Positions 11,446 through 64,000 of a stretch of 64,000 bases of DNA are shown here, in pieces. A model generated the notes under the pieces. That model saw only the letters and a list, made by a program, of their open reading frames with translations. It made no database searches and was not told the origin of the DNA. The DNA comes from Bacillota bacterium (lineage in GTDB: Bacteria; Bacillota; Sulfobacillia; Sulfobacillales; Sulfobacillaceae): NCBI GenBank assembly GCA_021820485.1, contig JAKADO010000006.1:1926-65925 (forward strand), given 5' to 3'. Made by a program: the position numbers and the translations under genes. Position 1 is the stretch's first letter. Each line of letters begins with the position of its first letter.

Positions 11446-12363
11446 TTACATTTCCGGCCCTTGCACGATGCGATGGATGGCAACCCCGCCAATGCTGACC
11501 GAGACCACCGCTCCTCCCAACATCGCCCACCCGGTATGCGTGTCCAGCAACTGCCCCATGTAGCCAGGATCCGTGAACCAAATCAAGAGACCCAGAGCGA
11601 AGGGTAGAAAGGTTAAAAGCCACCCGCTGTATCGGCCTTGGGCAGACAGCACGCGAATCTCCGCCTTAAGCCGTTGGCGCTCAACAATCGTGTGGGTAAT
11701 GTTTTCCAGAACGTCCGCCAAGCTTCCGCCCACTTCCCGCTGGATGGTAATGGCCATGATCGCCAGCCCGAGATCGCGCGAAGGGACTCGCTTGGCTAGT
11801 TCCTGCAATGTCTCAGTCGTGCCGAATCCCAGGGCCTCGCGCTTGAGGATGCGCCGCACCTCATCCCCCAACGGTCCTGAGATTTCCGCACTCACCATCG
11901 CCATGGCCTGAGACAGGGAGGATCCCGCACGAAGCGCGCTTGTCACGCCGCGCAGGAATTCGGGCAGCGCCTCTTCCGCGGTTCTGAGCCAACGCTGCTG
12001 CTTCATACGAAAATACACGGTAAGCCCCACCAAGCCCATCACGCCCAGGATGAGCCCCCCCACCAGTCCGCGCAGCACCACGCCAACCAAGAAGGGAATG
12101 AAAAAGCTGGCGATCCGAAAGAGAATATACTCGCTGACGCGAAGGCGCAAAGCGGCGGCGCCGGGCCCCATGCTCCAGCGTTCCTTCAGCGTCGGTTGCT
12201 GACTGGAGGAGCGGCCGCTCGGCTCCTTGTCCGCCACCCAGACGTCCCGGCCAATGGCTGCCATGCGCCGCTTGACGGTGTGTCCATTCCAGGCTTGGCG
12301 CAACGACAACGCCAACAACAGGAGAGCCACTGGCCACAAGACGGCGAGAACGGGTCCCAGCAT
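11446..12363 (-). CDS. tadB: Tad pilus platform protein TadB (T2SS F domain)
   Basis: SALRAGSSL, IQREVGGSLADVL, AQGRYSGW; start moved to ATG 12363. Confidence 0.88.
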   Translation of the reverse strand: MLGPVLAVLWPVALLLLALSLRQAWNGHTVKRRMAAIGRDVWVADKEPSGRSSSQQPTLKERWSMGPGAAALRLRVSEYILFRIASFFIPFLVGVVLRGLVGGLILGVMGLVGLTVYFRMKQQRWLRTAEEALPEFLRGVTSALRAGSSLSQAMAMVSAEISGPLGDEVRRILKREALGFGTTETLQELAKRVPSRDLGLAIMAITIQREVGGSLADVLENITHTIVERQRLKAEIRVLSAQGRYSGWLLTFLPFALGLLIWFTDPGYMGQLLDTHTGWAMLGGAVVSVSIGGVAIHRIVQGPEM

Positions 12364-23218: not shown

Positions 23219-23316
23219 CCCTTATCAAGAGCGGTCGAGGGAAAGGCCCGATGATGCCGCACCAACCGGTCTAGCGATACGGTGCTAAGTCCGACCCCTG
23301 AGGGGGAAAGATAGGG
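23219..23316 (+). ncRNA. SAM-I (S-box) riboswitch
   Basis: P1 CCTTATC/GATAGGG; AAGAG; P2 GCGGT/GCCGC with kink-turn CGAG/GATGA; CAACC...GGTGCT P3; AAGTCC pseudoknot strand; P4 CCCC-TGA-GGGG; collinear with the SAM-I consensus. Confidence 0.9.
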
Positions 23317-23372
23317 ACAGCCGCCCACCCTGCGCGGATCTTGATAACGGCTCCTAAAAGGAGCGTTTATTC

Positions 23373-60009: not shown

Positions 60010-60561
60010 CTAGTGCTGCATGCTCGGGCTTCCCCGTTTGGGATCGGACTGCATGACATTGCGGATTTTCCCCGCCGTCATGCCCATCATGCGCAGTCCA
60101 GCCTGAACATCCTTATCCATCATAAGCCGCATCAGACCACCAAGCCCTCCCAGTCCCGCCGTGTCGGAATGTGTGACATCGCTCAGTTCCCGGGACAGTG
60201 CCTTTAGGGTAGTCGGAACATTGCTTTGCTGGGCTTTATGGATTGTTGCCAGTGCGACCGAATTGACGTTTTCTGGAGTCAAGATCGACGCCAGCATGTC
60301 GACGAGCGCGCGGATTTGCGCCAGTACTCCCTTCTCATGCCATTCCGTCAGCAATTGGAGCGCTTCGCGCACCGCGCCCAGCATGTTGGACGGGGCCAGG
60401 GTCATTAACGAAACCACATAATCGACCGAAACAGCGCCCATGGGTCCGTTCATTGCATCATCGATGACCGATACAATATCTCCTAGTCGGGCCAGGCCAC
60501 GCCATTGCTCGTTCGTCAGCGGAATGGACGACCCTTGTTCCACCATATACGTACTGCTCAT
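60010..60561 (-). CDS. DUF1641-like protein
   Basis: C-terminal GLGGLMRLMMDKDVQAGLRMM amphipathic motif; ATGA overlap with sqr; start moved to 60561. Confidence 0.65.
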   Translation of the reverse strand: MSSTYMVEQGSSIPLTNEQWRGLARLGDIVSVIDDAMNGPMGAVSVDYVVSLMTLAPSNMLGAVREALQLLTEWHEKGVLAQIRALVDMLASILTPENVNSVALATIHKAQQSNVPTTLKALSRELSDVTHSDTAGLGGLGGLMRLMMDKDVQAGLRMMGMTAGKIRNVMQSDPKRGSPSMQH

Positions 60562-61835
60562 ACGCCTACTTCCTTTCCCAGCATTTCGGCAAAGAAGTCC
60601 GCGGCGGGAAGTCCCCACGGCGGCACCTTGCCTTTGGTACGGAAGAACATGTCCTTGTACTGCAATTTCAACAAGAAGGGGATATGCCCCATCCGGAAAA
60701 CTTCTCGATCCCCGCCGTACCACGTGTTGGAACTGATGTAAAAGGCTTCGTTGTGCCCCATGTCTCCGATGCAGTCGACGATGGGATGCATGCGCTCCTC
60801 CCCGGGGGCAATGTGCATGAGCCCAATGTCTTGACAGATTTGTCGAGCCGCCACTTCAGCTCCCATATGAGCCAAAATGCCGAGTTTTGGCACTGTGACA
60901 GCGGCCGCATCACCGCATGCGAAGACATTCGAAAAGCGAGGATTGCGCATGGTCATGTCGGTTTCTACGAATCCCACGTCATCCGAAATCGGCAGGTCCT
61001 TAAGAAACTGATGGGGCACCCAGTCCGGAAATATGATCTTCAACTCGGCTTCAATGTCGGGGCCCTGCTCGAACTCGATCCCGTCCCGGGTTATGCGGCG
61101 AATGTCGTAAGTCTTGTTGACATAGTGATAGCCCATCTTTCCCGCCAGCCCCAACAGCGTTTTCACGATGCCCATGCCGGCATCCTCGGCAATCCATTCG
61201 GCCGGGGTGAAAATGGAGACTTTGGAGGGGCCGCCAAAGTTATGCGCTTCCAGCCAACGTCCAATACTAAGCGACACCTCCACAGGCGGTCCTTCGCACG
61301 CAGCTTCCGCCATCGGCACATATTCACGCGACTTGCTGCCTTGGTGGAATCGTACCGAACCTACCGCGACGGGCCCGCCCTTGTATTCAGAATAGAGATA
61401 CCGCCGCAATTGATTGCCGTAATACGTATCGCTGACGGTATGGCCAAACTCGGCGAAGCCTTCAATTTGGTCATACGCCAGACGTGCGCCAACCGCGATG
61501 ACGACATAGTCATAATGCAGTTTGGCGGTTGCGCTTCCCAAACGCTCGGTAGGCAAAAACTCAATCGTTTGCGATTCCACGTCAATCGATTGCACATCGC
61601 CTTGAATAAATTGCAAGTGATCCTCTTTCATTGCGGGTTCCAGAGGCATGTGCATCGTGTATAAGGGGTCGCGGTCTTCGAAGACTTCAATGCCAATGTT
61701 GGGTATGAATAGCAGATACGGCTTTCGATCGATGACAGTAATGTCCACGGCATCTTGGCCATATTCACGGATCTTTTGCGCAGCACCCAATCCAGCAAAA
61801 TTCGAACCAAGCACCACAATGTGGGGTTTTGCCAA
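60558..61835 (-). CDS. sqr: Sulfide:quinone oxidoreductase-like flavoprotein
   Basis: VLGSNFAG FAD-binding start, YDYVVIAVG, two conserved Cys contexts ACEGPP and CIGDMG, ACGDAA..VPKLG. Confidence 0.75.
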   Translation of the reverse strand: MAKPHIVVLGSNFAGLGAAQKIREYGQDAVDITVIDRKPYLLFIPNIGIEVFEDRDPLYTMHMPLEPAMKEDHLQFIQGDVQSIDVESQTIEFLPTERLGSATAKLHYDYVVIAVGARLAYDQIEGFAEFGHTVSDTYYGNQLRRYLYSEYKGGPVAVGSVRFHQGSKSREYVPMAEAACEGPPVEVSLSIGRWLEAHNFGGPSKVSIFTPAEWIAEDAGMGIVKTLLGLAGKMGYHYVNKTYDIRRITRDGIEFEQGPDIEAELKIIFPDWVPHQFLKDLPISDDVGFVETDMTMRNPRFSNVFACGDAAAVTVPKLGILAHMGAEVAARQICQDIGLMHIAPGEERMHPIVDCIGDMGHNEAFYISSNTWYGGDREVFRMGHIPFLLKLQYKDMFFRTKGKVPPWGLPAADFFAEMLGKEVGV

Positions 61836-61858
61836 ATTCCCTCACCTCCACGGTTCGT

Positions 61859-61882
61859 ATGCCCCACAGGTACTAGGGGTAG
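61859..61882. promoter_or_regulatory. CsoR/CstR-family operator candidate upstream of sqr
   Basis: Minus strand reads CTACCCCTAGTACCTGTGGGGCAT, a TAC + C-tract / G-tract dyad pattern. Confidence 0.3.
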
Positions 61883-62036
61883 TCTGGTATTCCCTGGGAA
61901 GGAACCCGCCCTCGAAATTTAGAGGCTAGAGCAAGAGGGGGAGCCAGAAGACGCGGCATAAATTGTTTCAACCAGCACATCTTGATAGACTGGATCCTAA
62001 GTTGTTTGGCAGTTCGTACAAAAAAGGAGGGATACC

Positions 62037-62660
62037 ATGAATTGGACGGTTTATGTTCGGGAGAAGATGCGCGTGCTGTTTTCGTTGGACACCTGGTTGC
62101 CCACCGAACTACCCGACTATGCGGCGGGTCTTCTGTATACCTTAGGCTCGCTGACGGCCTCGAGCTTCGTGATTCTCGTGCTATCCGGGATTATCATGGC
62201 GGCCAATGGCCCCCAATGGTGGACCATCTCATCCGTGGGATTTTACCTGCGCGGAATCCATTTTTGGTCGGTTCAGGCCTTTTTCTTTTTCATGATCCTA
62301 CATCTTTTACGGGTCTTCTTTTCGGGCGCATGGCGCGGCGGTCGGGAACGGACCTGGATGCTTGGAACCCTCGCCCTGTTGGTCGCCATTCCGACCGCGT
62401 TTACCGGCTATCTCATGCGGGGCGACTTTTACTCGCAATGGAACGCCGTGCAATCGAAAGACGGCCTGAACGCGCTCGGATTCGCCTGGTTCAATCCCTT
62501 AAACGCCGGCCAAATGTATGGCTTGCATGTGGTGGTCATGCCGGTGATTTTAGGAGCGATTATTGCCGTCCACATTGCCTTCATCCGCATCAAGGGCGTG
62601 GTTCCCCCCTATCCGAGTCATGAAGAACTGCAAGAAACCCTGCATGAGGAGGTGCACTAA
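62037..62660 (+). CDS. Cytochrome b N-terminal subunit (b6/QcrB-like, split type)
   Basis: Four TM helices; heme His pairs RGIHFWS...ILHLLR (14 apart) and GLHVV...AVHIA (15 apart, b6 spacing); TGYL..D..SQW. Confidence 0.85.
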   Translation: MNWTVYVREKMRVLFSLDTWLPTELPDYAAGLLYTLGSLTASSFVILVLSGIIMAANGPQWWTISSVGFYLRGIHFWSVQAFFFFMILHLLRVFFSGAWRGGRERTWMLGTLALLVAIPTAFTGYLMRGDFYSQWNAVQSKDGLNALGFAWFNPLNAGQMYGLHVVVMPVILGAIIAVHIAFIRIKGVVPPYPSHEELQETLHEEVH

Positions 62661-63626
62661 TTGCGGCATTACCACCCGCGCATCGATGTCACGCACCGCT
62701 ACCGCTATGTCCCGGCCGATTTCGTGAAGCACCTCTTGAGTACAACGCTCGTGGTCGCGGCACTCACGGCCCTGCTCTCCGGCCTATTTCACGAACCCGT
62801 GCGACCCGCCCTCAAAATTGATGCCTATGCGACCCAGCACCCGAAGGGTTTCTTGACCGTGGCCCTCGGCGATTTGAACGGTACCGGAGCGATCGCGAAT
62901 TACGGCCCGCCCTACAACCATGGAACGGGGTCAGTTCAAGACATCATTCAACAGTGGGTGGGCGTCATTCACCCCGTGTACCCGAAACAAGCTTTTGTGT
63001 TAGAGCCGTTGGCCTATGCCGCACATCTGGACCCCACCCTGACCCCCGCGCTGAACCAGTTCACGCATGCCTCCCCGGCCCAGCAGGCGCTCTGGGAACG
63101 GGCCTTCGGGACCGCGCTGGATCATGCACGGGTCCAAGGTTCCCATGTGCTGTTGCCTGGGGGCGCGTATGGGCCGGTCGGCACGATGATGCAAGGGCTT
63201 TTGCATCTCGGACAAAGCGGGTTGATGACGGGTGCCCTTGACCGAAGTCCTGCAGACTACCAATTTGACAATCAGAACGCCTTATTGTTCTTGCAGGGAC
63301 ACCCCTTGCACAGCGCCGCCAAAAAACTCGAGTTGGAGGGCAATCAGTGGGGGATCATTCACGAAGAGCGCGCACCCTATCCAGGCCCTTGGTGGATGAC
63401 CATTGTCACAGCCATCTACCAATTGCCCTTTATCGCCAATGCCAGCGCCGCGGACGCGTTGGCGCTGGGAGCCGGCATGGTGGTTTTTCTCGTCTTGATG
63501 TTCGCGCCCTGGATCCCCGGAATTAACCGGCTGCCGCGGCTATTGGGCGTTCACCGGCTGATTTGGCGCAATTATTACGCCACGCACCAGGCGGACTCGT
63601 CCGATGGTCCATCTGTTCCGTCATGA
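62661..63626 (+). CDS. Cytochrome b C-terminal/subunit IV-like membrane protein with a large extracytoplasmic insertion
   Basis: Starts immediately after the cyt b stop; TM, about 200-aa soluble region, YPGPWW motif, TM, LMFAPWIP; no CxxCH. Confidence 0.55.
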   Translation: MRHYHPRIDVTHRYRYVPADFVKHLLSTTLVVAALTALLSGLFHEPVRPALKIDAYATQHPKGFLTVALGDLNGTGAIANYGPPYNHGTGSVQDIIQQWVGVIHPVYPKQAFVLEPLAYAAHLDPTLTPALNQFTHASPAQQALWERAFGTALDHARVQGSHVLLPGGAYGPVGTMMQGLLHLGQSGLMTGALDRSPADYQFDNQNALLFLQGHPLHSAAKKLELEGNQWGIIHEERAPYPGPWWMTIVTAIYQLPFIANASAADALALGAGMVVFLVLMFAPWIPGINRLPRLLGVHRLIWRNYYATHQADSSDGPSVPS

Positions 63627-63808
63627 AACGCCGTATCGGGATTTTACGGTTCGTATTAGGGTCAGTAGTGGGGGTCTTCGGCTTTGGACTGTTGGGCGTC
63701 TCTGTCATTCCCATTCACTGGCGGCCGCTAATCCTCGGGCTTGTCTTGTTGGGGTTGGGGCTCCTCCTCGCTGTAGGCACCGTGAGCGTCCGCGGACCAC
63801 AACGATAG
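63623..63808 (+). CDS. Small two-TM membrane protein (61 aa)
   Basis: ATGA overlap with the upstream gene; basic N-terminus then two hydrophobic helices. Confidence 0.65.
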   Translation: MKRRIGILRFVLGSVVGVFGFGLLGVSVIPIHWRPLILGLVLLGLGLLLAVGTVSVRGPQR

Positions 63809-64000
63809 CGGAGACGATCCATTCTCCGAATACCACTCTGGGGTACGACATGGCAGTGATCGCGACCGAATTTCTATGAAAGGCGTCGCGATCCCGCCTG
63901 CGCAAGGCTGGATCAGGTAGAACTCGATCGAGCCTCACCTTGACATCGCGAAATGTTCCTTCCCTCATCAAAATTGATCGGTCCGTCACCGTCGATGATG

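Follow-up and report, generated by a model that had tools for sequence, protein, structure and literature searches.

A cytochrome b module without Rieske or cytochrome c partner beside an sqr-DUF1641 cassette of Sulfobacillus: a possible stand-alone, quinone-linked electron conduit

How does a cytochrome b operon function when neither a Rieske protein nor a cytochrome c is encoded with it, and does such an operon serve the sulfide:quinone oxidoreductase (SQR) gene that lies beside it? Both questions are raised by a stretch of 64,000 nucleotides from a Sulfobacillus genome (assembly GCA_021820485.1, contig JAKADO010000006.1, positions 1,926 to 65,925 of the forward strand), called the window below. 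Near its end an sqr-DUF1641 gene pair and an operon for a split cytochrome b stand back to back. The original prediction saw in the latter a dedicated quinol-oxidising module for the electrons derived from sulfide. The plus-strand operon is a non-canonical cytochrome b module without a Rieske or cytochrome c partner; the dedication to sulfide-derived electrons was not supported, since the linkage to sqr is absent in the relatives, whichever of the two sides is followed. We propose, giving the proposal about an even chance, that the module is a stand-alone, Rieske-independent, quinone-linked transmembrane electron conduit and that its adjacency to sqr is incidental. The features of the locus are the following, in window coordinates:

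60010..60561, minus strand: DUF1641-family gene (183 amino acids, aa), with a PF07849 match and an ATGA overlap with the sqr stop codon
60558..61835, minus strand: sqr, coding for an SQR-like flavoprotein of the Acidianus ambivalens type (425 aa), with a full-length match to 3H8I/3H8L
61836..62036: spacer between the divergent units (201 bp)
61836..61898, minus strand: upstream stretch travelling with the sqr-DUF1641 cassette, delimited by blastn homology to the cyd-linked locus L089
61963..61991, plus strand: promoter-like element of the cytochrome b module, from the alignment with four sqr-less relatives
62037..62660, plus strand: b6-type dihaem cytochrome b (207 aa, four transmembrane (TM) helices), from PF13631/PF00033 and the b6 alignment
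62661..63626, plus strand: companion subunit (321 aa, two TM helices), always adjoining the cytochrome b, fused to it in Ktedonobacteria, with invariant columns
63623..63808, plus strand: two-TM hairpin peptide (61 aa), probably the third subunit, with an ATGA overlap and with homologues downstream in the relatives

The coordinates and the start/stop overlaps agree with the divergent layout described originally, in which three coupled plus-strand genes face the sqr unit across 201 bp. On the minus strand the ATG of the DUF1641 gene overlaps the sqr stop codon (ATGA). On the plus strand the cytochrome b gene is preceded by a GGAGGG ribosome-binding site, the companion gene starts with TTG immediately 3' of the cytochrome b stop codon and has its GAGGAGG site within the 3' end of the cytochrome b gene, and the peptide gene overlaps the companion stop codon via ATGA. 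The peptide could alternatively be read as an 81-aa open reading frame (ORF) from 63563, but the gene callers and the homologues prefer the 61-aa start. By hydropathy, four membrane helices are found in the cytochrome b, two in the companion and two in the peptide, eight in total. The identical 321-aa protein occurs on mine-drainage and mine-tailings assembly contigs and in the metagenome-assembled genome (MAG) GCA_027449265.1, and its closest named relative is that of Sulfobacillus harzensis (86% identity). The host is thus a Sulfobacillus MAG of mine-drainage and mine-tailings metagenomes, in agreement with the acidophile that had been assumed.

The lack of a Rieske or cytochrome c gene in the operon, as originally reported, was confirmed by a motif scan: among the real ORFs of the whole window, none contains CxHxGC...CxxH or CxxCH. 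A locus scan with the 321-aa protein, in which one genome per species was taken, supplied relatives of which 79 were examined together with the window locus, 80 non-redundant loci in total. The Rieske motif was found in 0 of these 80, haem-c motifs are sporadic nearby, and PF00355 is missing among the called neighbour genes. On the contigs reaching past the window no Rieske gene is co-transcribed just beyond its edge; the peptide gene is followed by approx. 690 bp without a called gene, then by tRNA-Lys (CTT), tRNA-Met and tRNA-Met on the opposite strand, convergent with the module (L001:11838-12083), and then by sporulation and flagellar genes. Comparable observations have been published. According to Justice et al. 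(2014) a di-haem petB homologue is found in the Sulfobacillus genomes except AMDSBA4; its operons contain neither cytochrome c nor iron-sulfur protein genes, and they were described as 'not canonical bc complexes' which 'may perform some other function' (PMC4378227). In the complete genome of S. thermotolerans Kr1 a cytochrome b subunit alone was reported, without a bc1 complex (Panyushkina et al. 2019, PMC6803676), and most Sulfobacillus genomes are reported to be without any bc complex (PMC4378227, PMC6803676). The Rieske-less cytochrome b oddity is therefore real, yet it has been in the literature since 2014 (Justice et al.).

The first subunit is clearly a cytochrome b. It matches PF13631 with 68.1 bits (cut-off 27, E-value 1e-18) and PF00033 with 48 bits (cut-off 27.2, E-value 2e-12), and its best matches among the solved structures are cytochrome b6 chains (E about 2e-11). 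H75, H89, H164 and H179 align with the b6 haem ligands, two of them in helix B and two in helix D, where the spacing is of the b6 type (14 residues between), and the four haem histidines are invariant in 75-76 of the 76 family homologues. The box of haem ci, YCIGG or YCLGG in the b6 chains, reads YTLGS in the window protein. The loss of the haem-ci cysteine, which had been pointed out in the original prediction, holds both in the alignment to the b6 chains and across the family: the Cys35 position is occupied by M, T, S, L or F, mostly by Met, and Cys is present in 0 of the 76 homologues. The conserved Gly of the CxGG box is kept. In the NCBIfam search the scores for ExtP (NF040969, 71.7 bits against a cut-off of 290) and for SoxC (NF041076, 35.6 against 740) stayed far under the cut-offs. 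In a close relative, MAG HSP1.bin10 (L007:9352-10001), the cytochrome b is split into two overlapping ORFs, by a frameshift or an assembly error.

The second subunit had been labelled subunit IV-like, and this label is supported in one part and not in another. In favour of it are gene order, fusion, topology and a conserved stretch at the place of the PEWY motif. In practically all 80 loci the companion either adjoins the cytochrome b or forms one protein with it. Its chain begins with a basic N-terminus and a TM helix, continues with an extracytoplasmic domain of approx. 220 aa and a hydrophobic stretch, and closes with another TM helix followed by a basic tail. On the other side, no profile or fold match to subunit IV was obtained and the PEWY motif is absent. 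PF00032 is not matched at E up to 10 by the companion, by the natural fusions or by a version from which the ectodomain had been removed; the companion has no Pfam or NCBIfam match, and its family profile finds nothing among the PDB sequences. Where PEWYxxxxYxxLRxxP would be expected the window protein has YPGPWWMTxxTxxYQxP, and the family has YPGxxWxxxxTxxYQxP. The PEWY position itself reads PGPWWM in Sulfobacillus and PGAAWL or PGQAWL in Ktedonobacteria, so that Trp alone is conserved, and the Glu and Tyr of this Qo motif are missing from the companion family. Since the ectodomain has no Cys, His or Met conserved across the family, it is unlikely to hold a redox cofactor. The companion is thus treated here as the positional and topological counterpart of subunit IV, on the basis of gene order, fusion and topology.

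In the natural fusions the PF13631 match reaches the first helix of the companion, and this was considered as a sign of helix-E homology. The control rejects it: when the cytochrome b was concatenated with the reversed helix, or the helix was swapped for the peptide, the same extension with the same score was obtained, thus the extension is non-specific. Several members of the companion family (P0004, P0016, P0050, P0059, P0074) are named 'cytochrome B6' by NCBI. This is a propagated misnomer, as haem ligands are missing from these proteins and Pfam finds no cytochrome b domain in them.

The 61-aa peptide is part of a conserved pattern. A homologous small gene, predicted to code for a hairpin with one or two TM helices, is found directly 3' of the companion in approx. 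60 of the 80 loci, usually overlapping its stop codon, and the hairpin peptides share the motif LRxxxGSxxGxxGFG. In Ktedonobacteria a conserved one-helix peptide gene (67-73 aa) overlaps the start of the fused gene instead (L086:7783-8004, L078:4057-4260), and its sequence is unrelated to that of the Sulfobacillus downstream peptide.

Relatives of the 321-aa protein are encoded at 335 genome loci in total, spread over Sulfobacillus, Alicyclobacillus and Ktedonobacteria, and a profile search of 1.8 billion representatives collected 919 companion clusters (50% identity, E up to 1e-3). The only recurrent extra domain in these clusters is the N-terminal domain of cytochrome b. In Chloroflexota and Ktedonobacterales the cytochrome b and the companion form one ORF of 503-547 aa, as in L076, L078 and L079; more than 120 clusters of fused Ktedonobacteria proteins were obtained, all at least 70% identical to the fused query. 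The fused protein is collinear with the window cytochrome b (45% identity) followed by the companion (39%). A fusion of the companion with a patatin, seen in one longer representative, is probably a chimeric call. Paralogues are common: S. thermotolerans Kr1 has three loci and the AMDSBA4 MAG has four or more.

Clustering of the neighbouring genes over the 80 loci revealed no conserved redox partner. The commonest clusters are an AMP-ligase (the largest, in 17 loci), short-chain dehydrogenases, response regulators and kinases. A kdp two-component system lies near the module in Alicyclobacillus ferrooxydans, and the neighbours in a Ktedonobacteria genome are HSP20, universal stress proteins (Usp), response regulators, sigma factors and a Dps-like ferritin; in L078 a VIT1/CCC1-like membrane protein was also noticed by eye. 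One paralogous clade is flanked by a UbiE/MenG-type methyltransferase fused to a Usp domain, which hints at a quinone-modification or stress context. The fusion genes are located as follows:

L032:7027-8187, UbiE/MenG-Usp fusion gene
L036:7024-8202, UbiE/MenG-Usp fusion gene
L060:6819-7955, UbiE/MenG-Usp fusion gene
L052:1696-2877, UbiE/MenG-Usp fusion gene
L056:1703-2821, UbiE/MenG-Usp fusion gene

In two of these loci, L032 and L036, the module is flanked also by cydAB, a Pyr_redox_2 flavoprotein and a LonC-like protease.

On the other side of the spacer, the name sqr for the 425-aa gene is well supported by sequence comparison. Its product is 38% identical to the Acidianus SQR and matches the PDB entries 3H8I/3H8L over the full length (E 4e-53, residues 6-403 against 3H8I). 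The equivalents of the redox cysteines Cys178 (CEGP) and Cys350 (VDCIGD) are both present, and the position of Cys129, which links the FAD (flavin adenine dinucleotide) in Acidianus, is Ser. Sulfobacillus, Acidithiobacillus, Acidiferrobacter and Thiomonas have orthologues of 55-77% identity, which are annotated as SQR by several sources. A metagenome scan with the SQR protein returned no confirmed locus.

The DUF1641 protein (PF07849, 24.1 bits against a cut-off of 21) is a conserved partner of the A. ambivalens-type SQR. The pairing recurs in L089/L090, L091 and L092, and a C-terminal GGLxGLxxxxKDxxVQxGL motif is common to the window protein and to the SQR partners in L089, L091 and L092; in S. 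thermosulfidooxidans the sqr is paired with a DUF1641 gene that is broken in two. L089, another Sulfobacillus MAG of the same sample series, has a 93%-identical SQR, and both there (L089:2325-6832) and in L090 the sqr-DUF1641 pair lies directly 3' of cydDC-cydB-cydA, so that the SQR stands beside a quinol oxidase. In Acidithiobacillus ferriphilus (L092:3907-7223) a sulfur oxygenase reductase gene is followed by sqr and then by the gene of a longer DUF1641-family protein (285 aa). Sulfur oxygenase reductase is a sulfide-producing enzyme, and this neighbour supports, by its context, the predicted sulfide:quinone activity.

Are the two units linked functionally? The synteny comparison suggested by the original prediction gave a negative answer: only the three-gene module is syntenic among the 80 loci. 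Tblastx against the nearest relatives (L007, L008, L027, L040; 84-88% identity) detects homology in the module and in a short upstream stretch; no sqr lies nearby in these four, and their flanks differ. Approached from the sqr side the result is the same, as no cytochrome b module is found beside the sqr orthologues of S. thermosulfidooxidans and A. ferriphilus, and L089 has cydAB instead. By blastn the sqr cassette is 79% identical to the DNA of L089 over window positions 60011-61898, the homology ending 63 bp upstream of sqr. The homology of the cytochrome b cassette begins approx. 85 nt before the ATG of the cytochrome b gene in the alignment of the upstream region with the four sqr-less relatives. 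Since each cassette's homology ends within the spacer, the 201 bp represent the junction of two independently conserved cassettes. The conserved stretch of approx. 85 nt includes a promoter-like element (TTGTTT, 17 nt, extended -10 TGaTAGACT), therefore the module is predicted to have its own promoter; a generic promoter scan did not list this element. In the part of the spacer outside both cassettes there is a palindrome, CCTCGAAATTTAGAGG (window 61910-61925), which could be an operator or a chance match.

The wider neighbourhood points in the same direction. In the 80 loci (1.23 Mb) SQR/NDH-2-type flavoprotein genes were found in 7, cydAB in 2 and strong MenG/UbiE-Usp fusions in 5. Roughly nine SQR/NDH-2-type flavoprotein genes are present per Sulfobacillus genome (74 proteins across the compared genomes; PMC4378227), and from this per-genome number a rough estimate of 3-4 chance neighbours in 1.23 Mb was made. 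The enrichment of flavoprotein neighbours (7 against approx. 3-4) is at most weak, and the pattern fits a loose 'quinone-pool neighbourhood' with no dedicated pairing. The adjacency in the window would then be a lineage-specific juxtaposition of two quinone-pool cassettes, which apparently came about by chance.

Parts of both operons are covered by contigs assembled from mine-tailings runs whose label, or a guess, makes them metatranscriptomes, and from runs of a coded organism. These contigs span the cytochrome b/companion, the companion/peptide and the sqr/DUF1641 junctions. This coverage is non-quantitative and is consistent with transcription and co-transcription of the genes.

From these data the following model is suggested. 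The sqr-DUF1641 cassette would deliver electrons from sulfide to the menaquinone pool. The plus-strand operon would encode a complex of three subunits: the b6-type cytochrome b, whose four helices carry two bis-His b haems but lack haem ci, the two-helix companion and the two-helix peptide. The companion ectodomain would sit at the place otherwise taken by the PEWY/ef loop and the surface for Rieske docking. The complex may exchange electrons with menaquinone at an N-side pocket, and the two haems would connect this pocket, for electron flow in either direction, with a remodelled P-side site beneath the ectodomain. In the absence of a Rieske centre it cannot be a bifurcating Q-cycle enzyme. 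A mere wire between quinone sites on the two sides would be energetically futile, thus a small-molecule substrate on the P side or an unlinked partner is needed.

More generally, and only tentatively, since we regard this extension as somewhat less probable than not, the family may be a widespread class of stand-alone cytochrome b complexes in which the ectodomain replaced the Rieske docking and the PEWY loop and in which the P-side site is non-bifurcating. In the same tentative sense, and jointly with it, the cytochrome b fold of this class would be split over three genes, or consist of a fused chain and a peptide.

Several points weigh against the conduit model. The donor, acceptor or partner needed on the P side is not indicated by the gene context. 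The interaction with quinone would follow from the membership in the cytochrome b family and from the occasional quinone-pool neighbours (SQR-like, CydAB, MenG-like), and the functional reading of the whole family rests likewise on sequence comparison. Sequence methods failed to establish homology between the companion and subunit IV: an hhalign comparison with four PetD sequences, checked to match PDB chains exactly, reached a probability of 0.7%, for the helix-E region only. The AlphaFold2 models are poor, with a predicted local distance difference test (pLDDT) value of 63 for the companion and 58 for a natural fusion, and with these models Foldseek matched only the N-terminal half, weakly, to b6, and the ectodomain had no match. 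Finally, the RNA evidence consists of assembled contigs from runs whose RNA status is a guess.

Among the alternatives, the one that survives best, which we hold to be possible but clearly not favoured, is that the module serves as the membrane anchor and electron-entry subunit of a peripheral or integral partner encoded elsewhere, such as a terminal oxidase, in the way that SoxC serves SoxABCD, or an extracytoplasmic reductase or dehydrogenase, the ectodomain being the docking platform. Cytochrome b homologues that fill such roles without a Rieske protein have been described, among them SoxC and ExtP, the weak NCBIfam matches mentioned above. An ectodomain without cofactor ligands is what a docking or capping domain would look like, and cydAB lies 3' of the module in L032 and L036. 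Against this, no partner gene is conserved beside the module in the 80 loci, the largest cluster being the AMP-ligase with its 17, and the SoxC and ExtP scores do not approach their cut-offs.

A role as a stress-protective electron sink or source, comparable to the cytochrome b561 CybB of Escherichia coli, or as a quinol-driven reductant of extracellular Fe(III) or oxidants, is improbable in our view. CybB is a superoxide:quinone oxidoreductase, but it belongs to an unrelated four-helix family. Such a role would suit metal-rich acid waters and a module that stands alone without a partner, and it could draw on the HSP20, Usp, Dps-like ferritin and sigma factor neighbours in Ktedonobacteria and on the MenG-Usp fusions and two-component regulators beside several Sulfobacillus copies. 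In S. acidophilus TPY the petB-1/petC-1 pair ('PET I', with no petA listed) was 13- to 32-fold higher on Fe(II) than on sulfur (PMC5114278); the membership of this pair in the family could not be verified and it is taken as a lead only. The support for the stress or Fe(III) role comes purely from gene context, and no conserved charged or metal-binding patch could be demonstrated.

Equally improbable is that the module belongs to a genuine Rieske/cytochrome b complex, with the genes for the Rieske protein and the high-potential acceptor located at another place in the genome. In some cytochrome b subfamilies the Rieske gene is known to be unlinked (Dibrova et al. 2017, PMC5600118), and the cytochrome b core retains all the haem ligands and parts of the cd-loop sequence. 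However, the Rieske motif is lacking from all 80 loci, with three or more module copies per genome, and most Sulfobacillus, including S. thermotolerans Kr1 with its complete genome, were published as being without a bc complex. Moreover, PEWY has become P-W-W-M or A-A-W-L with the loss of the acidic residue and the Tyr, and the topology would place the ectodomain of approx. 220 aa at the ef-loop position, where the Rieske head docks.

The least probable reading, and one that we consider very unlikely, is the original one, a dedicated quinol oxidase for the neighbouring SQR that is co-regulated with it from the shared spacer: in spite of the 201-bp distance of the divergent units, the palindrome between them, the SQR/NDH-2-type flavoprotein genes at 10 kb or less from paralogous modules in 6 further loci and the succession of module, cydAB and such a flavoprotein gene in L032 and L036, the linkage is missing in the nearest relatives and from the sqr side, the spacer joins two separately conserved cassettes, the flavoprotein neighbours are enriched no more than about 2-fold, with no consistency in distance or strand, and the family is present also in soil Ktedonobacteria, in stress-gene contexts without sqr.

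A few further observations concern the surroundings of the locus. The end of the window (63809-64000) and its continuation (L001:11149-11837) contain apparent gene remnants, for example a receiver-domain-like one, LDVEMPRMGGYTLTRRLR, at approx. L001:11567-11620, which was read by eye. In two other contigs of the same population (L003 and L004, from base 11883) the identity of 99.9% stops within the tRNA-Lys gene and a tyrosine integrase gene comes next, as would be expected of a strain-variable element that had inserted at the tRNA-Lys 3' end. The sole Rfam match in the window is a SAM (S-adenosylmethionine, S-box) riboswitch at 23219-23317 on the plus strand (69.8 bits), and the Rfam scan gave no match within the sqr/cytochrome b region.

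The role of the module matters for several reasons. Most Sulfobacillus are reported to be without a bc complex, yet they retain several copies of the module, and its function bears on how bioleaching bacteria link the quinone pool to the chemistry of iron, sulfur and oxygen. The abundance of the family in soil Ktedonobacteria makes this function one of general interest. In evolutionary terms the family illustrates a cytochrome b in which the Rieske-dependent Q cycle was either lost or never present. If the stand-alone class is real, it would be a new mode of quinone-linked transmembrane electron transfer, of consequence for the respiratory chains of acidophiles without bc complexes. The claim of a sulfide-dedicated quinol oxidase has to be corrected, as the adjacency to sqr is not a conserved functional linkage.

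Compared with the known systems, the SQR of the window shares both redox cysteines and the full-length similarity with that of Acidianus ambivalens (3H8L/3H8I), and differs from it in the Ser at the place of the covalent-FAD Cys and in the bacterial order of sqr followed by a DUF1641 gene. The module shares with PetB/PetD and QcrB/QcrC the split order, in which the four-helix cytochrome b comes first, the four His, the b6-type spacing and the Gly of the CxGG box. Unlike the b6f and Firmicute bc complexes, it has no haem-ci Cys, PF00032 domain, PEWY motif, Rieske protein or cytochrome c/f; an ectodomain of approx. 220 aa is inserted, the second subunit has two helices and not three, and an extra two-TM peptide is present. 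SoxC of the Sulfolobus SoxABCD system and ExtP of the Geobacter ext operon, which came first or close to first among the NCBIfam models, are members of the cytochrome b family which work without a Rieske protein. Both are encoded with redox partners, namely oxidase subunits and multihaem cytochromes, respectively, whereas such partner genes are absent beside the window module. Subfamily D of Rubrobacter and Conexibacter (Dibrova et al. 2017, PMC5600118) also has a short, split cytochrome b, in which CxGG is changed to TLGS, as in the YTLGS of the window. Those proteins, however, are described as parts of cytochrome bc complexes, and since the window family has mostly Met at this position the shared TLGS may be coincidental.

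The closest precedents are the Rieske-less petB homologues of Sulfobacillus (PMC4378227, PMC6803676), which are of the same genus and the same kind of gene and were likewise regarded as non-canonical. Beyond those papers, the companion and the two-TM peptide are recognised here as conserved subunits, and the fusion in Ktedonobacteria, the size of the family and the relation to sqr are described. What is new is thus the three-subunit definition of the module, its Ktedonobacteria fusion, the size and spread of the family, the family-wide loss of the haem-ci Cys and of PEWY, and the evidence against a link with sqr.

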